49,345 nucleotides of DNA from Chiloscyllium plagiosum (lineage: Eukaryota), in contig NC_057757.1 in the NCBI RefSeq assembly GCF_004010195.1, positions 5,078,416 through 5,127,760 on the forward strand, given 5' to 3'. Every line of letters starts with the position of its first letter. Position 1 is the stretch's first letter. Both the position numbers and the translations under genes were made by a program. Positions 1,132 through 39,201 of this stretch are shown in pieces. Under the pieces are notes generated by a model. That model was not told the origin of the DNA and searched no databases. It saw only the letters and a list, made by a program, of their open reading frames with translations.

Positions 1132-1244
1132 GTCCCTGTTGCGAATCATTGGGGAACCTCCCCCATTTCCGTATTACAGTGAGTTTGAGAAGGCTATGAA
1201 TAGTCCTGGAATAAAGAGTTCTTTCTCATCCCTGCATGCTGGAG
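1132..1244 (+). CDS. SAP25: SAP25-like gene, internal coding exon A (phase 2 to 1)
   Basis: Branch-like TGACTAAT, T-tract and TAG acceptor at 1130-1131; donor GAG|GTAAGA at 1245. Only one frame is open: SLLRIIGEPPPFPYYSEFEKAMNSPGIKSSFSSLHAG. Phase fits exon B. This exon has no recognised similarity to mammalian SAP25. Confidence 0.7.
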
Positions 1245-1708
1245 GTAAGAGAATTGATGAAATTACAGGGAGGTAACAGTGTTTTGGTTATTGCATCAGG
1301 AAATCGCTTTAATTTTAACACGTTTATATCTTTTTCAAGCAAGGCACTTAGAAACATTAATGCAATCAGGCAGAGTGAACTTTTGTCTTTTTTTTGAAAG
1401 ACTTGACATTGTGGATGCTGAAAGGATACTCGCCCTTGTGGGAGAGATTTAGGACTAGGGGATACAATTTCAAAATCAGGAGTCTTCCATTTGAATCAAA
1501 GATGAAGAGGATTTCTTTCTGTCTTTAGAATACCCCCCCCCCCCCCCCCAGTCAGCCGTGGTAACAGGATCATTGAATATTTTAAAAGCAGAAGTTGATT
1601 GATACTCCTGTTAATCAACAATTTATAGTTATTGTGGAAATGTGAAGTTGAGGTCAGTCAGATAAGCCATGACCTTATTGAATGGGGGAGTGGGCTCAAG
1701 GGGCCTGA

Positions 1709-2035
1709 GGGCAGCATGGTGACTCAATGGTCCACACTGTTGCTTCACAGCCCCAGGGACATTGGTTTAATTCAAGCCTTAGATGACTGTGTGTGGAGTT
1801 TGCACATTCTAGTGCTCTGGTTTCCTCCCACAGCTCGTGCAGGTTTGATGGATTGGCCATTCTAGATTGCCCATAGCATCAAAGGATATGCAAGCTAGCT
1901 GGGTTAATCTTGGGAAATACATGGTTACAGGAATAGGGTAGGGGGTGTATCTAGGTGGGATGCTCCTGAGGATCGGTGTGAACTCTATGGACTAAATGGC
2001 CTGCTTCCGCACTGTAGGAATTCTATGATTCTATG
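1709..2035 (+). mobile_element. tRNA-derived elasmobranch SINE (HE1-like), diverged
   Basis: A-box/B-box-like head, TGTGTGGAGTTTGCACATTCT core, CR1-like tail ending ATTCTATGATTCTATG. Confidence 0.75.
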
Positions 2036-2178
2036 AATAGCCTCCTCCAGTGCTGTGACCTGCATGTTTTTATCAACTATTGACATCTGACTGATTTGAT
2101 GTGTATGCCCAATATTTTATCATTCTATACTTTAAAGGCTGTACGGAACTCTGGAATTAATGCTTCCTTTCAACCTAG

Positions 2179-2300
2179 GAGGAGAGACAGTCCACAATCA
2201 GCTTGCTGCATTGTCATCGGACAGAGATAAATCTTCTTCATTTAACAATGTGGGAGATGCAAGCACATCCAGTTCAAGGAATGCTTCCCAGTGCAGAGAG
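2179..2300 (+). CDS. SAP25: SAP25-like gene, internal coding exon B (phase 1 to 0)
   Basis: Acceptor CTTCCTTTCAACCTAG|GA; donor GAG|GTTTGA. Open Ser-rich frame GGETVHNQLAALSSDRDKSSSFNNVGDASTSSSRNASQCRE, bridging the phases of exons A and C exactly. Confidence 0.65.
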
Positions 2301-3457
2301 GTTTGAACTTTACTTTTACAGTATCACTCTCTCCACCTGTCAACCCCCACCCCCACCGCTTCACGGGCCCACGCGTGCACTTGTTCCAACTTGGAACCAC
2401 CGGTTTTCAGGCCTACACCAATACCACTTTGTAATTGATTTGCCCCTCCCTCCCTTCCTTTCTAGGGAAGCTGCCTGCTTCACAGCAACTCTCCCTAAAG
2501 AATAGGAACTGATAGAAAATCTTAGACAAGGAAATGTGTTCTGTGGCAGTCTGTCCCCTAAAAAATTCAGACTGTGATACCAGAATGTACCTGCCATAGA
2601 TCTCTTCATTAGTTACTTGTGAGTATGTGGACTCAGTGGGGAATGCAATCATTTATATTTCCATGGCAGGCACTTGAAATGCCATCTCATCCTTTTGATG
2701 GAATGCTAATCGACTTGCTGTATGTTCCCAGTATTTAGTTTTGGTGTGCTGTTTGCTTGGCTAAACAGGGTGTTAAGAGTCAGGAGTCGGTTACAATAAC
2801 AGGGGCCATGAGCCAGGGAGAGAGAGAGCCTCCTGTTGGTTTGGGTGCATCAGAGTTGCAGATAGGCACAACCATTAATTGTCAGTTTTGGGATATCTTC
2901 TCCCCTTTGTGACTGCACTGCCACCAGTGGGTTAGGCTATTGATGGGACACTTAAAGTAACCAATGAACCTGCCCAAAGACAAAGTTATAGCGCAATGCC
3001 ATTATGCGTGCTGAACTGTCCAATGTTGTCCTGTGTGGTTATGCAAAACCACCGGAATCATGCAGGTTGTCTGTTCTCAGCTCCATTGGGGAGAGTGGAA
3101 AGGCCCTTCAGGGATAAAGTTGAATTATTCTGTGGGGCCCTGAGAGGAGCAAGAATGCAGTACCTGAGGCCCATAAGATTAGTTGGGTGACTGCAGCTCA
3201 TAGCACCCTCATCCAACATCCAATTCCTTTGAATAATCAGGTGGGACATCCACACGTAATACTGACCATTTTGACCAACTTTCAAACTGAATTTATACCT
3301 TACACCTTGTATTGGGTCATGGCAGCATTGAACAGATTCTGAATTTCAGAAAGCAAGATCTTTTCTGGGCCCTGAGCCATTAGTTAATCTCATGGTTCAA
3401 TTTGAAATCAACACACAGCTGTTTGAGTACTCACAGGTGTCTCTTCTCTTTGTTCAG

Positions 3458-3677
3458 GTGACACATTCAGGTGTTGTTGCTCCATTCTCCAACAGGACTC
3501 TATCACACCCATCTTTTCACTCCTTTTATGCTGCTGTTTCATCTCAGCAGTCACAGAGTGTCTTTGCTGAACTTGATGACTGCAGATTTAAGAACAAAGA
3601 TTCCACTGATTCCCACTCTAGGCCTGACCACACAGTGAAATCTGAAGCCAGCATCCTCCGTTCCCAAGAAATTCACA
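3458..3677 (+). CDS. SAP25: SAP25-like gene, coding exon C (phase 0 to 1)
   Basis: Acceptor CTCTTCTCTTTGTTCAG|GTG; donor CA|GTAAGT at 3678. Encodes PFSNRTLSHPSFHSFYAAVS, closely resembling the recalled human SAP25 motif SFSGRTLCHPSFWPLYEAAS. Confidence 0.8.
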
Positions 3678-4772
3678 GTAAGTAATGAGCTCTGTTGGAT
3701 TCCAGTCCAAAACAGTAATACAGGCATTACATATATTTAAAATCCCAGTACAAGGCATGGCTAAGCAACATTCTGTCATGCAATCCGAGATCTCTCTTGT
3801 CTAACTTTTTGCTTTACGTCTTTCTTCATCATTTGAATGTCAAAAGGCAGAAAAAGCATTTGTATGGAAGCTTTCACTTCCACAGGGCAAGCCCAAAGTT
3901 CTTCAAAATCAACAAATTACTTTTCAAGTGGTGTAGTTTCAACTTATTGTTTCACAAGGCATGGAGTCATTGGCAAGGCCAGGATTTATATCCCAGTCCT
4001 CACTGCCCTTGAACTTACTGGCTTCTTCATCCATTTCAAAGGCCAATAAAAAGTCAACCCATTTGTAATCTGGAGTCAAATGTCGGCCAGACCAGGTTAG
4101 AATAGATTTCCTTCCACAGGGCACAAGTGAAACTGATGGGTTTTTGTAACAATTAATTATTGTTGTCATAGTTGCCATCAGTGAGAGTATTTTCAATTCC
4201 ATATTTTGTTAATTGCATTTAAGTTTCACCAGCAGTAGCCTAGGCTTCTGATCCAGTGACCCTGTCAATATATCAGAATCTCCCCACTGTAGTTAGTGCT
4301 CTTGAGATTGTGGCAAGCAAACTGACATAGTGAGCTACTGTGAACAATAATTATTCTGTTTGGGTACTGGTGGTTCATGCCAATTCTGCGAATTTTGTCC
4401 CAAAACACACAACTTTGTTTCAAAATCTCACTACATCAGCTGGGGATTTCAAATTCAGTTAATTAAATTCGTACTTTAAAAAGATGAGCTCAGTAGAGGC
4501 AACGAAGGTGGCATTTTACAACAATCCAATAGTTTCACAATGTCTTTCGAGGAAGGAAAACTGCTATCGTTACCCGGTCAGGTCTACATGTGACTCCAGA
4601 CCTATAACAGTTGACCCTTGGCTTCCCTCTCACACCATGTAGTAAATTCGATTTAAGAATGTGGTTCACCACCACTTCCACAGGGCACTTTGGGATGGAC
4701 AATAAATGTTGGCACAGAAGATTTTATTTTAAAAACCGGTTTCATTTTTCTTGATTCTCATCTTTATCTTAG

Positions 4773-4825
4773 AACTTTTGCGAGGTGATATTACATGGAA
4801 GGTGTTATCTAAATGCCAATTATTG
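4773..4825 (+). CDS. SAP25: SAP25-like gene, coding exon D (53 nt, phase 1 to 0)
   Basis: Long pyrimidine tract and TAG at 4771-4772; donor TTG|GTGAGA. Encodes KLLRGDITWKVLSKCQLL (compare human PLLPRGQRVPLYLSKAPQQ). Phases join exons C and E. Confidence 0.75.
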
Positions 4826-5239
4826 GTGAGACTTAAATAAAAGGAAACATCTAGTGCACTGTTTCATCAACGTTCTGCTATTGTATTTCAGTGCCGGCCA
4901 TCCATCAATGTGAGTTTTTCTATACTGACCCAATGCTGCCATCTGGTTATCGGGTTTACAACCGTCTTTCACTTCCCACACGCCAGGTAATGTTGGAACA
5001 CTTGGAACATGTAGGCTGTTTAGATGCAGCATTTTTGCAATGGGTTTCCACTTGAACTTCAGTATATCCCCAATATTCATGTAAAGCACCTTGGGCATTT
5101 TACTACATTAAAGGCGCTATATAAATGCAAGTTGTTGGTGTCTTGAATGCTCCAGGGTAACGCTACTTGAGATAAAAATAATGTGCTGAAGAAACTCTGC
5201 GCATCAGGGGAGAGAAACAAATAATGTTTCCAAGTCCAA

Positions 5240-6105
5240 TCTGGTGGACACCGAAGGTTACCTCCAATTACAACGGGATCTTAACCAGATGGGCCAATGG
5301 GCTGAGGAATGGCAGATGGAGCTTAATTTAGATCAGTGTGAGGTGCTGCATTTTGGGAAAGCAAATCTTAGCAGGACTTGTACACTTAATGGTATGGTCC
5401 TAGGGAGTGTTGATGAACAAGAGACCTTTGAGTGCAGATTCATATCTCCTAGAAAGTAGATAGGATAGTGAAGAAGGTGTTTGGTGTGCATTCCTTGTCA
5501 GAGTATTGAGCACAGGAGTTGGGAGGTCATGTTGCAGCTGAACAGGACATTGGTTAGGCCACTTTTGGAATATTGTGTGCAATTCTGGTCTCCTTCCTAT
5601 TGGAAGGATGTTATGAAACTTGAAAGGGTTTAGAAAAGATTTATAAAGATGTTACCAGGATTGGAGGATTTGAGCTATAGGGAGAGGTTGAACAGGCTGG
5701 GGCTGTTTCCTCTGGAGCGTCAGAGGCTGAGGGGTGACCTTAGAGGTTTATAAAATTATGAAGGGCATGGATAGGATAAATAGACATGGTCTTTTCCCTG
5801 GGGTGGGAGTGTCCAGAACAAGAGGGCATAGGTTTAGGGTGAGAGGGGAGAGATATAAAAGGGACCTAAGGAGCAACTTTTTCACGCAGAGGGTGGTACA
5901 TGTATGGAATGAGCTGCCAGAGGAAGTGGTGGAGGCTAGTACAATTGCAACATTTAAAAGGCATTTGGATGGGTATATGAATAGGAAGGGTTTGGAGGGA
6001 TATGGGCTGGGTGCTGGCAGGTGGGACTAGGTTAGGTTGGGATATCTGGTCGACATGGATGAGTTGGACAAAGGGTCTGTTTCTGTGCTGTACATCTCTG
6101 ACTCT
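5240..6105 (+). mobile_element. CR1 LINE 3' fragment (RT C-terminus and 3' UTR)
   Basis: LQRDLNQMGQWAEEWQMELNLDQCEVLHFG; TRGHRFRVRGERYKRDLRSNFFTQRVVHVWNELP; stops and frameshifts. Confidence 0.9.
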
Positions 6106-7134
6106 TCAGAACTCTGCAGTTCCAAAGGAGTCATACTGGATTTGAAAAATAAACTGTTCTACTGTCCACAAACACTGCCAGACCTGCTGAGTCTCTTCAG
6201 CACATGATTTCATTTCAGATCTTAAGCTTCTGCAACTTTTTGACTTTTTAAAATTTAATGGTATTTGGGATTGACTTTGTGTTTTGGCTAGGTGGTAGCC
6301 ACCTCGTAGTGAAGTCTATAGCTCATTTGTCTCCTTTACATTAGTAATGTGGCCAATAATTTAGAAAAGAGACTGACCACAAAGTATCTAAAACATACAC
6401 TTGTGATTGGCCCTATTTTAATATGAAAATTGGGATCCTACAATGTAAATAGGACACCAGATGCCATTTAAAGTAGGAACTAATTTGACTGAATTTCCAC
6501 AGGGAAATGGAAGATATTCTCAAATCCGAGGTCAACAAAAATAATCTGGGCGTTCAGGGACCTGCCATGTGTTGCTGGCCTTGCTAGGAATCACTTCAGC
6601 CTGACTTCCAATGTTCACCCTGGCAGACTCCACCAAGACACTGTAAACGGCAGTTCTGGTTAATGTATGTGAGGGAACCTCAACAATCTGTCCAAGTCAA
6701 TGTCGACTTCCTTTTGCCCACATTAAAAGATACCACTACAGTGTTATACCTCTTAAACTGCTGGATGGAAATGAAGAAGCAAAAATATGGTTTTCAAAAG
6801 ATACTTGTTTAGTTTGAATTTAGAAAGTAAAATTTGTGCATTTCTTTGTATTACTGGAATCATCTCCCTGATCAAATAGGCAGAATTCCACTTTTGGGAT
6901 AAGAGAATTGTTTCAGCAATTTAATAGTGGGATCCATGCAATTTTCTCCAAGATAAAAGTTGATCATGATGTTTAAATATGTATGTAAGTTAACTCACTA
7001 AGCTTGAAGGTTTGTTTTCAGACATTTAGTCACCGTACCAGGTAACATCATCACTGAGAGTCTCTGGTGAATTGCTGGTGGGTATATATTTATAGATCTT
7101 GGTTTCTTAAGGTGGGTGATGTCAGTTCAGTTTA

Positions 7135-7410
7135 CTTAGTGTGGAAACAGGCCCTTAGGCCCAACAAGTCCACACTGACCCTCCAAAGAGCAACCCACCC
7201 AGACCCATTCCCCTGCATTTACCCCTTAACACTACGGGCAATTTCGCACATTTTTGGACTGGGGGAGGAAACCGGAGCACCTGGAGGAAACCCACGCAGA
7301 CACTGGGAGAATGTGCAAACTCCACACAGACAATAGCCTGAGGCAGGAATTGAACCCGGGTCTCGGGCACTGTGAGGCAGCAGTGCTAACCACTGTGCCA
7401 CCATGCTGCC
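7135..7410 (-). mobile_element. HE1-like SINE
   Basis: Minus strand GGCAGCATGGTGGCACAGTGGTTAGCACTGCTGCCTCACAGTGCCCGAGACCCGGGTTCAATTCC (A and B boxes). Confidence 0.85.
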
Positions 7411-8218
7411 CTGGTTCTGGTTCTTTTTTTCTCAAGGGAAGGGAAATAGGGTCTAAATTGATGTGTTTATTGATCAAGTTCTGATTAGAATGCCATGCCT
7501 CTAAGAATTCTCGTGCATGTCTTTGTTTAAATATCTTAAGGTTACTTTATTGCCTTGGTGTGGCTCCACTATTTGTTTTTCTCTTGCATTTTCATAATGT
7601 AGAAGTTACTGTATGATAATCTCTCAGCCCAGGGAAAGACCATTCAGGCCATTATACTTGGATCAACTCTTTTTGAAAAAGCTCCCTGCAGCCCTTTCAA
7701 TTTCCTTTCCACAGCTGCTATTAAATCCTTCATGACCATCAGGCAGCATGTTCCAGATCATGTAAAATGAAAATTCTGTACCTTTTGCTTTATTTTTGGT
7801 CAGTATCTTAAATCCGAATCCTCTGGAGACTGACCCTCTCTACCAGTGGAAAGTTTTTTTTTTCCCCTATACATTCTGCCAAAACCCTCCACAATTTTTA
7901 GCATTTCTATTATATCTTCCCTTTAATATTCTGCGTAAACAAAGAAGTTAACTTACCTGAAAGATACCTCCAGTTGCAGATGTCTGTTCAATTAATTGAA
8001 TTGTTACGCAGGAGATGTTACATGAGTTTCCTGTCTCCCACCCTAGTTACCAATTCTCCTTCTGATTAAGGGCTCTGCCAAGTCTGGACCTTTGGCTTTG
8101 AGATATAATTTTAAACCAAAGTGCTTGGGGGAAACCCAAACCCATCTTCATCCATTTGTCCTTAGCAAGAACTATGAATGATTTGTTTCCTCTTGTGACT
8201 GGAGTTGATAAAGAATTA

Positions 8219-8387
8219 GAGCTGAAAATGTGTTGCTGGAAAAGCGCAGCAGGTCAGGAATCCTGAGGAAGGGCTCATGCCCGAAACGTCGATTCCCCTG
8301 CTCCTTGGATGCTGCCTGACCTGCTGCGCTTTTCCAGCAACACATTTTCAGCTCTGATTTCCAGCATCTGCAATCCTCACTTTCTCC
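8219..8387 (+). mobile_element. Short Penelope-like (pLTR-derived) insertion with inverted repeat and 14-bp TSD
   Basis: TSD TTGATAAAGAATTA at 8205-8218 and 8388-8401; 40-bp perfect inverted arms at 8219-8258 and 8315-8354. Same CTGGAAAAGC.CAGCAGGTCAGGCAGCATCC family as other copies. Confidence 0.75.
8257..8296 (+). ncRNA. Minimal type-I hammerhead ribozyme motif
   Basis: GGAATC-CTGAGGA-A-GGGC-TCAT-GCCC-GAAAC-GTC-GATTCC: stem I 6 bp, core CUGANGA and GAAA, stem II 4 bp, vestigial palindromic stem III (ACGU), GUC cleavage triplet. Confidence 0.7.
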
Positions 8388-8439
8388 TTGATAAAGAATT
8401 AACCATGACTTAATTGTTAAAATCCAATTGATTCTGCAG

Positions 8440-9075
8440 GTGCTTCAAGGTTTACGGCTCAACACTCCTTCACCCATCATGTCTGCAAGTGTGGCTCCAA
8501 GTGTCCAGAGAGACAGTCACACTCCAGTCAGTCATGCTTCTCACTCTCTGAATAGATGCCAGGAGCAGAGCCGCCCTGTATCTACAGCAGAACGTGATGC
8601 CATCAGCACCTTGCTGGACCTTAGACAGTGTGGTCACATTGACAGCACAAGGACAGAAACCATGCAATGCACACTGAAGAGCAAATGTGTTCACCAGTCA
8701 AAGGATCACCAGGATATTGGAACAAACGGTGTTAAGTTACCAGCCAACCCAGGAGACTCTAATATAAAGGATTGTGATGTCCCCAAACAAAAGAACCCCC
8801 AGTTTAACAGCTGGAGCAAGACTTCAATGGAATCTTCTCCAACCACAGAGCTTTATAAAATCAAACATGTAGCCGAGTCTAAATGGGAACTCAAATATGC
8901 TGATTCCACTAAAGCATCCACAAAATCTGAAGGTAGACCATCAAGCACTTCCTCAGAGACCAAGATTAAAACTGAAAAGTTGCTGTGTAGCGGGAGAGAA
9001 TCTGTAGACTTTGTGGGCATTGTGCCAGACGTATCTCAGGAAAATGAAGTCAGCAGTTGTGACTTTCCTACTTAG
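8440..9075 (+). CDS. SAP25: SAP25-like gene, terminal coding exon E with Sin3-interaction-domain-like helix
   Basis: Acceptor ATTCTGCAG|GTG, then an open frame to TAG at 9073-9075. VLQGLRLNTPSPIMSASVAP resembles human MMGSLKLLPPPPIMSARVLP. VSTAERDAISTLLDLRQ (8578-8628) resembles the SAP25 SID (LSGPELIALTGLLQMSQ). AATAAA candidates lie near 9930 and 10087. Confidence 0.8.
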   Translation: MLQGLRLNTPSPIMSASVAPSVQRDSHTPVSHASHSLNRCQEQSRPVSTAERDAISTLLDLRQCGHIDSTRTETMQCTLKSKCVHQSKDHQDIGTNGVKLPANPGDSNIKDCDVPKQKNPQFNSWSKTSMESSPTTELYKIKHVAESKWELKYADSTKASTKSEGRPSSTSSETKIKTEKLLCSGRESVDFVGIVPDVSQENEVSSCDFPT

Positions 9076-13008: not shown

Positions 13009-13659
13009 TTACACACCTTTACACTGAGGGAGGCAGAAATTATAGAACGAATTCTGGTCAAACAAGTCCAGCTTCTTCCAAGCAACCCAGCCTTTCCTTT
13101 GGGCATATTCCTTGTCCAGGGTCTTCCCAGAATAATGGGGATCCAGGACGAGGAAGTAGTGGTTCTCTGTGCCTGTGCACATGCCCAGAATCCCCTTTGA
13201 AGCATTGTCATTGTCACCGCCCATCATGACAGGGGACCCCAGTGTGTCAAAGTGCAGGTAGAGCTCGTCGACTTTCTGCAAGAGCTCGCCCCCTCGCCGC
13301 ACATGAATCAATTTGCATGGGATGTCATAGAACTTGTCGATGCACAGCGCGATCTCGAAGGAGCCAATCCAGGTCTTGGAACCAATGAAGTTCGGGGGCT
13401 TATCCTCCATCTCCACCAGTGCCTCCTGCACTTCCTTCAAGGTAGGCACCTGGTGGTTCTTTATGTTCGTCTGCTGCAGAATAACCCAGGAGGAGAGAGT
13501 CTGCATCGTCCGGTAACCGCAGCCCCAGCCACAGTCGTCTGTCCCATCACAGCCGTAATGATAGTAGAGGTAATCACCACGGACCAGAGAGAGCCGCTGG
13601 ATTTCGGAGTGTGGCTCAGGGAGAGGGAGGCCAGAGTGAACGTTCTTCACCAACTCCAT
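13009..13659 (-). CDS. UFSP1: UFM1-specific protease 1 (peptidase C78), 216 aa, single coding exon
   Basis: YYHY...DDCGWGCGYRTMQT (catalytic Cys), WIGS, GGDNDNASKGILG (UFSP1-type rather than UFSP2 GGGVLAHTILG) and DPHY (Asp/His). ATG at 13659 is in strong Kozak context (aacATGg) with an in-frame TGA just upstream. Splice acceptor TTTTCTGCTTTCAAG| puts the exon start at 13682. Candidate ATTAAA near 12931-12936. Confidence 0.95.
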   Translation of the reverse strand: MELVKNVHSGLPLPEPHSEIQRLSLVRGDYLYYHYGCDGTDDCGWGCGYRTMQTLSSWVILQQTNIKNHQVPTLKEVQEALVEMEDKPPNFIGSKTWIGSFEIALCIDKFYDIPCKLIHVRRGGELLQKVDELYLHFDTLGSPVMMGGDNDNASKGILGMCTGTENHYFLVLDPHYSGKTLDKEYAQRKGWVAWKKLDLFDQNSFYNFCLPQCKGV

Positions 13660-14196
13660 GTTCAATCCTTGTGCAGTTCAACCTTGAAAGCAGAAAACTG
13701 CATATTATTTATAAATAATCTCTCAAATCCTGCAATTAGGCACGTCAAAAGTATTAAATTGGCTCCTGGTAATTAACAGTTTGCAAAACGAAACAACAAT
13801 TTGCAGAGACTTCCAATTCATAGGAAGCCCTCAAACCCATGTAAATAATTCAAGGAAGGGACTGGGTATAGGGGATGGAAGGCATTAATGTACAGTATGT
13901 ATAGCGCTGTGGCAATTCAAGCCTGACTTTCTGCAGCCATCAGCTATACAGTTGCTCAGAGGGTCTGCACTTGCTGGTCAGCGCACAGACGCAGTGACTT
14001 CTGATTCCTGAAGCTGTTGCCACAAGCACAGACCTTGGAGGTCTGCGCAGCAGCAAGAACAATGAGAGAGAACGTAAACCGTTCATGTGTCTGGCAGCAA
14101 TGCAGATAGAAAAGCAACATCTTGAAGGTCAGAGGGAAACAGCACTAGCTTGAGGGGCTGACCCTAGCTATATCCGGGTTCCTCCCACAGCCCAAA

Positions 14197-19413: not shown

Positions 19414-19640
19414 AGCTCCTTTACCTCGCATTTCCATTCTCCTGCCGCCGCCGGTGCCGCTGATAAAATGGCGGCCGCGCGCTCACGTGACTCGCCTTCC
19501 GCCCCGCCCCGCCCCTGCGCCACGTCGTCACCGTCAGCGCCCAGCTGAGGAGTACCACGTGACGCTTGGCTGTCGTTTCCCGCCAATGCCCTCCTCGTGC
19601 TCCTCCTCCTTTGGGATGGCACCGCACGGGCGTGCAGGGG
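19414..19640 (-). promoter_or_regulatory. CpG-island promoter and probable first exon of UFSP1 (donor at 19424/19425)
   Basis: The only CpG-dense stretch in the window. YY1 motif (AAAATGGCGGC, 19465-19475), E-boxes TCACGTGA (19483-19490) and CACGTGAC (19556-19563), GC boxes at 19500-19515, GCCACGTC (19519-19526), TTTCCCGCC/CCAAT (19576-19587). Minus-strand donor GAG|GTAAAG points toward UFSP1. Confidence 0.75.
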
Positions 19641-19875
19641 TATCATTGCATTGGGTGTGACACTCACTGACCCAACCCTATATCCCCCCACCCTCCACTC
19701 ACCTAGCACTCCTGCTTCTCAACAAAGAAGGCCAGTCCATGGCTCAATGATGGCATCGACTTGGGTTCTTCATGCCAACCTGTACAACACTCCAGGGTGG
19801 GGTTGTGGGGCCAGGACTCTTCTTGAGCTATTGGGAACAAAGGAACTTTGGCTTCCCTTTCTTTCTATGCCGCCT

Positions 19876-34635: not shown

Positions 34636-35075
34636 CAACATTAGGGCTGACTGTCCTGGCTTGGAGTTGCTGCTCCTGCCTTTGGGATGACATTAAATGG
34701 AGGGCCCTGCCTAGTCTTTGAGATGGTTGTAAATAAACAATCCCCTGGCTGCTACTTGAAAGAAGAGCAAGTAAGTAGCCAATCCTGTACTTCTCGTTCA
34801 GCATCAGTCATGGCTTATCTTGTCAATATTGCACAGCTGTCTGCGGGATCTCACTGTGTACAAACAGCCTGCTCTGTTTCACACACTGCAGCAATAAACA
34901 CGCTTCAAAAGCACCTCATGGGTGGCCGCTGTAAAGCCCACTGAGGGCTCTATAGACTGTGAGAGGCGATATACAAGTGCAGGTTTTTCATTTTGTGAAC
35001 CTCTACAATCTTGAATCACAGTATCTGGGGAAAGTCCCTGAGGGATGCCGGATACAGATTGCTGCCTTCCCTTAC

Positions 35076-35162
35076 CTCTTTCAGAGCAACGACACCAACA
35101 AGTCTTCCAGTTGACGTCACGTAGGCTATCCTCAGTCCCAGGAGATTGAAGAGGTCGTAACA
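35076..35162 (-). CDS. CLC chloride channel exon, CBS2 core (87 nt)
   Basis: Acceptor CCTTTGATTTCAG|TGT; donor GAG|GTAAGG. CYDLFNLLGLRIAYVTSTGRLVGVVALKE aligns with CLCN2 [29 protein letters not shown]. Confidence 0.92.
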
Positions 35163-36014
35163 CTGAAATCAAAGGAGTGCTTTTATTCATTTATTTTTTT
35201 AAAAAGCAGATAAACAAAGTTCAACCATCACCCGAAATGAGCTTTGATGTTTGTCTCTCCAACACTTTTGTAGCTTCCATCTTATGTAACCCGTAATATA
35301 TATGTCTCTGCTGTGACATTCTGTCATATCAACTCCCATTCATCCATCATTCCTGACAGACCTAGACTGGCTTACCCCTCCCTGACTTAATCCCCTTGCT
35401 ACCTCTGCAATTTCTTCCATCTCCACTCCCCCTCCAACGAGATCTGTCCAGTTCTAGCCTAACAAACAGTCATCAATCCACCATTGACGGCCATCCCTTC
35501 AGCTGCCTGGGTGCTGAAATTTCCTTCTGAAAATTTTTCCCACTCTCTCTTCTCGTTGAAACCTCCTGCTTTTCACCACCTTTCCCGCCTGTTTCGGCAG
35601 ACAGCACTCCCTGTGAAGCACCTTGAGGATAGCTTCACAACATTAAAGGCGCTACATCGATGCAAGTCGGCATTGCTGTGCCTGAAGTTAATCAGTGATG
35701 GGTTGAAGGATTATGGGGAGCAGGCGGGAAAATAGAATTGATGCCAAGATGAGATCAGCCTTGACTGTATTAAACAGCACAGCAAGCTCGAGGGACTGAC
35801 TTGCCTACTCCTGGTCCTGGTTTCTATGTTCTTAATATTTACCCTAACAGACAAAACCCATTTATCCCCCAGTTACACTGACATTGTACAGTGAACTTAA
35901 AAAGACTTACAAGGGGGTGCCAGGCCCCCTACGGTGAGCGACACTGTGAAATAATTCTTTTTTGTAAAAATATTCTTTATTTATGAAATTTCTATAAGTA
36001 CAGCTCAAAACATA

Positions 36015-39096: not shown

Positions 39097-39201
39097 CTCA
39101 TACAGGGTTTCTTTCTCCACGAGTCTGAACGGGGCTGGGTCAATGACACACTCATCCAGCTTCAGCACCTCCTGCAGCTGAGCGTATTCCCAATTCTCCA
39201 C
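39097..39201 (-). CDS. CLC chloride channel exon, start of CBS2 (105 nt)
   Basis: Acceptor TTTTCTGGGTGCAG|GTG; donor GAG|GTAAGA. VENWEYAQLQEVLKLDECVIDPAPFRLVEKETLYE aligns with CLCN2 [35 protein letters not shown]. Confidence 0.92.

Follow-up and report, generated by a model that had tools for sequence, protein, structure and literature searches.

SAP25, an adaptor of the gene-silencing Sin3/HDAC complex, is best described from human and mouse (Pfam PF15476; PDB 2RMS; human isoform 3 of 199 aa), where a mostly disordered chain carries three short blocks, here termed B1, B2 and B3, followed by a type II Sin3-interaction helix (SID). Mutagenesis of the human protein has mapped sites for SCF-FBXO3 and for OGT/TET, and single-block mutants each lose one partner (PMC10942353). 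HEK293 cells are described as devoid of SAP25 (PMC10942353). The Tet1 SID and other type II ligands of the Sin3A PAH1 domain are short amphipathic helices of the same orientation class as the helix described below, according to the available text of two studies (PMC6168491, PMC7948954).

Here we report that a gene of the bamboo shark (Chiloscyllium), whose product databases label 'uncharacterized', is real and is SAP25, an ordinary member of this known family. The order B1, B2, B3, SID is common to shark, human and mouse, as are the type II SID, the mostly disordered chain, the key Thr/Ser of B1, the P-I-M-S of B3 and the LL of the SID. The shark protein differs in its length (about 502 aa versus 199), in an N-terminal arm of about 200 aa with a block confined to sharks and rays, in a longer B1–B2 linker and a tail of about 150 aa beyond the SID, and in having T-P-S-P where human and mouse have four prolines and Ile where they have the first Leu of LxxLL. 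We consider it very probable that the locus is the SAP25 orthologue and that its product works much as human SAP25 does, as a disordered adaptor. The exon chain, the family membership, the order and conservation of the motifs and the prediction of a mostly disordered chain come from the present analysis; every binding partner named below is proposed by analogy with experiments on the human and mouse proteins.

Gene structure

The gene lies in a window of 49,345 nucleotides, the whole stretch of DNA analyzed. Spliced together, five plus-strand exons bounded by AG/GT sites read through as a single open frame of 394 aa with a terminal stop, while the remaining two frames of the joined exons contain 34 and 9 stops. 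All 394 residues match residues 109–502 of a RefSeq bamboo shark model (P0112), which may share its assembly with the window and which is labelled 'uncharacterized', as had been anticipated from the sequence. The chain of exons also agrees with RefSeq models from several sharks and rays, and another shark protein, P0001, is identical to the window product at 386 of 394 positions. The first exon in the window (1132–1244) encodes residues 109–146 of the 502-aa model, with earlier exons to the left of the window; residues 1–101 of P0001 gave no tblastn alignment to the window at E ≤ 10, which agrees with the initial failure to locate the 5' end, and about 108 N-terminal residues are encoded to the left. 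The second exon (2179–2300, residues 146–186) is a poorly conserved Ser-rich linker, the third (3458–3677) carries B1 with RTLSHPSFHSFYAA at 3494–3535, and the fourth (4892–4986) carries B2 with CEFFYTDPMLPSGYRVYN at 4909–4962. The last coding exon (8440–9075) supplies 211 aa and a TAG stop, and comprises B3, the SID helix and a disordered tail of about 150 aa.

With the RefSeq model, the full-length protein is 2.5 times as long as the 199-aa human isoform, rather than twice the mammalian length as first estimated. Nor is such length peculiar to cartilaginous fish, since lungfish (552/587 aa) and salamander (538–590 aa) SAP25 are comparable, as are caecilian (469/506 aa) and gar (362 aa) proteins; all but the caecilian ones are named SAP25 in RefSeq, and pika SAP25 isoforms reach 355–390 aa. 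B1–B3 of these four groups are closer to the shark (FFYTDP..P.G.RVYN, TPPPIMS), whereas the shark N-terminal block was seen in none of them and the extra length cannot be aligned between groups.

Membership and range of the family

The Pfam SAP25 profile (PF15476) matched 6/6 shark homologues, P0001 included, at 45.9–54.4 bits against a cut-off of 27. It was the sole Pfam family at E ≤ 1 in each of the six, and neither a catalytic nor a DNA-binding domain was found in the Pfam scan of these proteins, unlike Tet1, an enzyme with one SID. Scanned one by one, the window exons all fell under the SAP25 cut-off, and the B1 exon alone aligned to profile positions 27–55 with E = 1.9e-4. A shark-only profile searched against 1.84 billion proteins gave 73 matches, 65 of them non-chondrichthyan; the 27 of these 65 that are named by source are all bony-vertebrate SAP25 or uncharacterized/hypothetical proteins, and named SAP25 was retrieved from newt, axolotl, turtle, lizards, frog, opossum, pika, lungfish and gar. 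Yak SAP25 was aligned by BLASTP at 30% identity over 121 aa (E = 1e-9), a region that spans B1–B3 and leaves out the SID. When a 22-sequence family profile was compared with the PDB, the single match was 2RMS_B, the mouse SAP25 SID (E = 0.003). The identity proposed by the sequence-only reading, the reciprocal retrieval of tetrapod SAP25 and the presence of the family beyond mammals, in sharks, rays and bony vertebrates, are all borne out by these results.

A further homologue search, which scored only the top 8000 candidates by shared words, yielded 21 proteins, from lizards, snakes and mammals where named, and none of the 21 was a human, mouse, chimaera or jawless record. From sequence, the minimum age of SAP25 would move from bony to jawed vertebrates, with no jawless match in this limited search. 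The description of SAP25 as a protein characterized in mammals was too narrow: it is already annotated by name in gar, lungfish, salamanders, frogs and reptiles, and Xenopus sap25 has been studied, as the available text of PMC9388080 indicates. The analysis names an 'uncharacterized' gene of sharks and rays and extends the known range of SAP25 to these animals; the Pfam match of their proteins had already been precomputed, and the current view of how the Sin3 complex works is unchanged.

The Sin3-interaction helix

The SID-type helix, STAERDAISTLLDL, is encoded at 8581–8622 (+). Its AISTLLDL segment (8599–8622) fits the type II PAH1 motif, given in the available text of PMC7948954 as small-hydrophobic-x-small-hydrophobic-hydrophobic-x-hydrophobic, and I346, L349 and L350 correspond to human L146, L149 and L150. 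The human peptide binds with a Kd of 63 nM (PMC13068551). With a SID matrix trained solely on non-chondrichthyan proteins, the helix scores 13.9–29.7 in 13/16 shark and ray records, compared with shuffle 99th percentiles of at most 5; the same 13 records satisfy the type II motif, Thr being counted as small, and the other three are truncated or have different ends. AlphaFold2 predicts a helix at residues 340–355, with a block pLDDT of up to 92. Together with the 2RMS_B match, these results uphold the earlier recognition of a SID-like helix. The strict LxxLL described for the mouse and human SID is replaced by IxxLL in the shark; Ile also occupies the first position in opossum, herring and moray, and Val does so in turtle, lizard and lungfish. 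Since several of these carriers are named SAP25, strict LxxLL does not define the family.

Conserved blocks and proposed function

Two of the three non-helix blocks coincide with mapped sites of human SAP25, so the earlier proposal that such blocks are functional elements is not wholly new (PMC10942353). By motif spacing, and via other mammals, B1 residues T200 and S205 map to human T35 and S40, which fall in the region needed for SCF-FBXO3 capture. The human fragment sufficient for FBXO3, residues 16–30, ends ahead of the conserved RTL..HPSF block, which is touched only by the 21–40 deletion and the four-site mutant (PMC10942353). B3 (8452–8484, +; LRLNTPSPIMS) aligns with human 110–119/P114–117, needed for capture of OGT/TET and Ajuba/WTIP (PMC10942353); human prolines 114–117 read T-P-S-P in bamboo shark, two of the four being kept, and T-P-P-P in horn shark and two batoids. 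B2 of exon 4, targeted by no published deletion in PMC10942353, is the best-conserved block of all, present in 65/65 distant matches and 14/14 shark and ray records, and is predicted to form a small β-hairpin plus helix (pLDDT 67–80); its human counterpart lies at about residues 80–100.

With two blocks located on mapped human sites, the shark protein is most probably a disordered adaptor tying Sin3A PAH1 to SCF-FBXO3 and OGT/TET. By this analogy, the helix at 8581–8622 would fold within the hydrophobic PAH1 cleft of Sin3A, tying the protein to Sin3/HDAC, B1 would recruit SCF-FBXO3, and B3 would recruit OGT with TET2/3; Thr/Ser phosphorylation in RTLSHPS possibly switches B1 recruitment off. 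B2 may be a further docking hairpin, for which USP11 is, as a guess, the best candidate partner, because human residues 50–130 bind USP11 independently of 110–119.

An unlikely alternative is that the protein is SAP25 and binds Sin3A, but that B1, B2 and B3 form one folded unit or serve another ancestral partner, the FBXO3 and OGT links being mammalian additions. The B1–B2–B3 order is constant throughout the homologues and the B2–B3 spacing nearly fixed, which together with the modelled B2 hairpin and helix would suit a folded unit; however, the B1–B2 spacing ranges from about 40 to 80 residues, the AlphaFold2 model is disordered for the most part, with a pTM of 0.30, and the human mutants lose their partners one at a time. 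In favor of mammalian additions, the mammalian branch is long (2.39), the Thr-Pro of B3 differs in mammals and most of the FBXO3-sufficient fragment lies outside B1. The alignment offers workers on the Sin3 complex a free mutagenesis guide, which narrows the FBXO3 and OGT regions to the few positions conserved among jawed vertebrates and draws attention to the exon-4 block.

The N-terminal block and additional sites

A 46-aa N-terminal block is seen only in sharks and rays, and its second half, SLLRIIGEPPPFPYYSEFEKAMNSP (1133–1207, +), lies in the first window exon. Bamboo shark and batoid copies of the 46-aa block share 72% identity, compared with 28–44% for the linkers. No relatives were found among the 65 distant matches or the 94 homologues (best i-E 2), in the PDB at E ≤ 10 or, as a usable match, in the Atlas, blanks that do not prove that relatives are absent. 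As a second, canonical SID the block was rejected: the register E-H-D-Y-L-R-S-L-L-x-I is present, yet the SID matrix gives -5 to -14, 6–76% of shuffles score equally well across 11 records, and Tyr occupies the required small-residue position.

More tentatively, the ancestral jawed-vertebrate SAP25 could have been a multivalent scaffold of about 500 aa that mammals trimmed. Sharks and rays may have kept or gained a fifth site, the 46-aa helix-PPP-helix block, whose LxxLL is invariant and whose conservation equals that of the SID, and whose partner could be a nuclear receptor or some other hub with a helical cleft. Elsewhere, many fish, lungfish and amphibian homologues contain two or three SID-type helices, among them lungfish, salamander, caecilian and sturgeon with their longer tails, compared with one in the shark; such helices could serve as a bridge between multiple Sin3 molecules or multiple PAH domains, and a single-SID SAP25 is perhaps not the rule. 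The universal exon-4 hairpin may likewise mark a partner site, again with USP11 as the candidate.

Among other structural comparisons, Foldseek with the low-confidence model gave 0 PDB matches at E ≤ 10, an uninformative outcome. A WASP-type PDB match of the last exon (3M3N, E = 0.002) reflected a brief RPVS..RDA resemblance that the family profile did not reproduce, and was taken as chance, and a weak Pfam match to 30K_MP_C_Ter (E = 0.06) fell in the low-complexity tail and was rejected.

Orthology and the neighboring gene

It is very improbable that the gene is not the SAP25 orthologue but a paralogue born of genome duplication. The absence of the 46-aa block from 94 other homologues and the weak deep nodes of the core tree would be compatible with it, but each named shark or ray species appears with one locus, isoforms aside, and the tree rows group by vertebrate class and form no second clade. 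The gene also adjoins a UFSP-type gene, as had been expected: a single-ORF peptidase C78 gene (13009–13677, −; Pfam PF07910, E = 3.4e-59) lies 3.9 kb downstream, tail to tail and outside the SAP25 gene. We take this neighbor to be of UFSP1 rather than UFSP2 type, and the human SAP25 region, 7q22.1, presumably also holds UFSP1.

A misplaced fourth exon

The sequence-only reading had proposed five exons and at least 380 aa; the five-exon frame stands, at 394 aa, and the fourth exon has to be replaced. The apparent choice, 4773–4825 (+), yields exactly 380 aa, and its LSKCQLL (4805–4825) lies in intron 3, outside the gene. Of the three ordered blocks reported, RTLSHPSFHSFYAA (3494–3535), VLQGLRLNTPSPIMSASVAP (8440–8499) and STAERDAISTLLDL (8581–8622) do follow one another on the plus strand, but the middle one had been given as a mis-spliced chimera, and the best-conserved block, that of exon 4, was missed. 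The 380-aa version scores below the 394-aa version against 14/14 shark and ray proteins, none of which contains LSKCQ, and among 94 non-chondrichthyan homologues a local score of at least 40 is reached by 4773–4825 in 0/94 and by 4892–4986 in 90/94. A genuine alternative 380-aa isoform is thus extremely improbable, for despite AG/GT ends and compatible phases 4773–4825 is one of 11 phase-compatible candidates within that interval, is unmatched in the 14 shark/ray and 94 non-chondrichthyan homologues compared, and would remove the best-conserved block of the protein.

Gene model

The three sequence anchors of the sequence-only reading, RTLSHPSFHSFYAA (3494-3535), VLQGLRLNTPSPIMSASVAP (8440-8499) and STAERDAISTLLDL (8581-8622), all occur on the plus strand of the window. 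Of the five-exon chain proposed there for a SAP25-like gene, four exons are retained (1132-1244, 2179-2300, 3458-3677 and 8440-9075) and the fourth is replaced by 4892-4986; the five plus-strand exons have AG/GT ends and, when joined, encode 394 amino acids and a stop in a single frame. The 380 residues given previously are regenerated when 4773-4825 serves as exon 4, and LSKCQLL, quoted as exon-4 sequence, sits at 4805-4825, upstream of the true exon. The 4892-4986 model outscored the 4773-4825 version in each of the 14 shark and ray proteins compared, none of which contains LSKCQ. Among 94 non-shark/ray homologues, the 4892-4986 exon attained a local score of 40 in 90 and the 4773-4825 stretch in none. 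Since it fails these comparisons, the earlier middle block is a splicing error by which, judging from sequence, the best-conserved part of SAP25 was lost. The 394 residues align without gaps or mismatches to positions 109-502 of RefSeq LOC122544338 (Chiloscyllium plagiosum), residues 1-108 being encoded by exons left of the window; because this record may share the window's assembly, the match confirms the annotation and not the transcript.

Family membership and taxonomic range

A search with the last exon retrieved six shark proteins of 502-651 aa, each with a precomputed match to Pfam SAP25 (PF15476) and each labelled hypothetical or uncharacterized, as had been anticipated; profile search enlarged the shark/ray set to 14 records. 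Pfam SAP25 scored 45.9-54.4 bits in all six proteins (cut-off 27) and was their sole family at E<=1, bearing out the proposed identity, and the bamboo shark gene is almost certainly a SAP25 orthologue. SAP25 is a known family, with names already given from gar and lungfish to mammals; new here are the corrected shark gene model and some testable leads. The literature listings searched contained no paper dealing with SAP25 of cartilaginous fish or with the phylogeny of the family; subscription journals and supplementary orthologue tables may list the shark gene, and sap25 has been investigated in Xenopus (PMC9388080, in the part available). In the ESM Atlas, SAP25 clusters ranked first (score 0.86) and third (0.85), scores that the tool grades as leads only. 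The second-ranked cluster for residues 186-360 of the shark protein P0001 is 'RIKEN cDNA 1700031F05 gene' (0.86; Pfam shares DMRT-like 43%, SAP25 13%), and a connection between these families is a lead only.

At E<=0.001, a shark-only profile searched against 1.84 billion representatives matched 73 proteins. Of these, 65 lie outside sharks and rays, and a source name was obtained for 27 of the 65. Matches named SAP25, which include the reciprocal tetrapod matches sought earlier, came from newt, axolotl, turtle, lizards, python, frog, opossum, elephant shrew and pika, and from lungfish and gar. Uncharacterized or hypothetical matches came from caecilians, sturgeon, eels, herrings, arapaima, a wrasse, a lizard and a frog, and the remaining 38 appear, from their motifs, akin to the proteins of frogs, lizards, mammals or teleosts. 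The 27 names, which come from limited searches, include no chimaera, jawless fish or invertebrate. The suggested origin in the jawed-vertebrate ancestor agrees with the shark/ray and bony-vertebrate members, the date being a minimum because the searches were limited. A tree of the SAP25 core (20 rows; jerboa and one further row, without the anchor motif, excluded) recovered sharks plus rays (97/96), ray-finned fish (96/99) and mammals (100/99); its deep nodes are poorly supported, and it shows no second clade. The wrasse protein P0081 (968 aa), with SAP25 blocks C-terminal to an unrelated 700-aa region, is probably a gene-model fusion.

The shark protein is about 2.5 times the human 199-aa form (isoform 3 in the part of PMC10942353 available), rather than twice the mammalian length. 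Nor is length peculiar to cartilaginous fish: among what are predicted models throughout, lungfish (552/587 aa) and salamander (538-590) proteins are also long, followed by caecilian (469/506), sturgeon (408) and gar (362), with mammals at 170-431 (15 records). The added residues are not alike: shark proteins have an N arm of ~200 aa and a tail of ~150, whereas lungfish and salamander tails are 250-310. In the N arm, 9 of 15 shark/ray records (1.7 expected by shuffling) and 24 of 56 others (7.2 expected) have a Trp with an acidic run after it; the records counted include isoforms and are not independent. We fairly infer that ancestral SAP25 was long and was shortened in amniotes.

Conserved blocks and predicted structure

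Between bamboo shark and batoids, identity is 0.69, 0.87 and 0.68 in the conserved blocks B1, B2 and B3 (exons 3458-3677, 4892-4986 and 8440-9075), and 0.72 both in the Sin3-interaction-domain-type (SID) helix and in an N-terminal block (N block, residues 98-143), against 0.28-0.44 in linkers and tails. Profiles of B1, B2 and B3 match 57, 65 and 61 of the 65 distant proteins, the shark SID profile just 8 and the N block none. On a SID matrix built from proteins outside sharks and rays, the shark/ray helix nevertheless scores 13.9-29.7 in 13 of 16 records, with shuffle 99th percentiles <=5. The single PDB match at E<=10 to a 22-sequence family profile is the mouse SAP25 peptide 2RMS_B (E=0.003), beginning at the shark SID helix, whose AISTLLDL matches the type II PAH1 motif as described in the available part of PMC7948954. 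AlphaFold2 (73-sequence alignment; mean pLDDT 54, pTM 0.30) places helices at 103-114, 121-131, 204-223 and 340-355, a short hairpin in B2 and disorder elsewhere.

Of 21 shark/ray records, 20 have the N block and the remaining one is partial; none of 94 non-shark/ray homologues has it. Its motif LRSLL reads LRPLL in one ray. As a canonical SID the block fails the SID matrix, and it has no match in PDB or the ESM Atlas. With isoforms counted separately and certain extra helices scoring near threshold, the 94 non-chondrichthyan records comprise 62 with a single SID-type helix, 18 with two, 8 with three and 6 lacking any. Sharks, rays and mammals have one; the 26 records with 2-3 include P0017, P0018, P0019, P0020, P0023 and teleost-like ones, those named being caecilian, newt, axolotl, lungfish and sturgeon, and their last helix often lies <=~25 residues from the C-terminus.

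Proposed function

According to the available part of PMC10942353, human SAP25 captures Sin3 through 131-168 and LL149/150; FBXO3 is lost upon deletion of 21-40 or S26/27/40D T35E, fragment 16-30 being sufficient; OGT/TET and Ajuba/WTIP are lost upon deletion of 110-119 or P114-117A; and USP11 is bound by 50-130, independently of 110-119. By motif spacing via other mammals, shark T200/S205 correspond to human T35/S40, T300-P303 to P114-117 and L349/L350 to L149/L150, and B2 falls at about human 80-100, within 50-130 and outside both deletions. Of the non-SID blocks, suggested earlier to be functional elements, B1 and B3 coincide with positions identified by mutagenesis in human SAP25. The human peptide shows coupled folding with a Kd of 63 nM (PMC13068551), and the type II orientation is described in PMC6168491, both as given in the accessible parts of these papers. 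From the mapped sites, the type II motif and the SID peptide data, shark SAP25 is best read as a disordered adaptor that would link Sin3/HDAC with OGT/TET and SCF-FBXO3. By analogy, the shark SID is predicted with high confidence to work, and OGT and FBXO3 docking is rather probably conserved; against FBXO3 docking, the sufficient fragment stops ahead of the RTL block, and against OGT docking, only two of the four human prolines are kept in bamboo shark. B2 is a tentative candidate for the USP11 site.

Neighbouring sequence

A peptidase C78 gene, a single intact minus-strand ORF (13009-13677; E=3.4e-59) with an ATG close to its 5' end, lies tail to tail with SAP25; we take it to be UFSP1, presumably the gene linked with SAP25 at human 7q22.1. 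Two minus-strand exons of a CLC chloride-channel gene (39097-39201 and within 35019-35168), from its C-terminal CBS region, match ClC-1, ClC-2 and PDB 2D4Z about equally (E ~1e-4 to 1e-5), exon 39097-39201 by itself matching 2D4Z weakly (E=0.18). This gene, oriented toward UFSP1/SAP25, has diverged from ClC-1 as well as ClC-2, and may be a paralogue; mammals are not known to have a CLCN gene at 7q22. Directly after a 940-base N gap, a GC-rich, CpG-bearing stretch (~19415-19660) with the word AAAATGGCGGC, presumably a YY1-type site, may serve as promoter for the UFSP1-type gene; a coarse 300-base scan flagged no CpG island there. The SAP25 introns hold repeat fragments (5190-6100, 7130-7410 and 8210-8390) that we take to be LINE/SINE-like, typical for shark introns.
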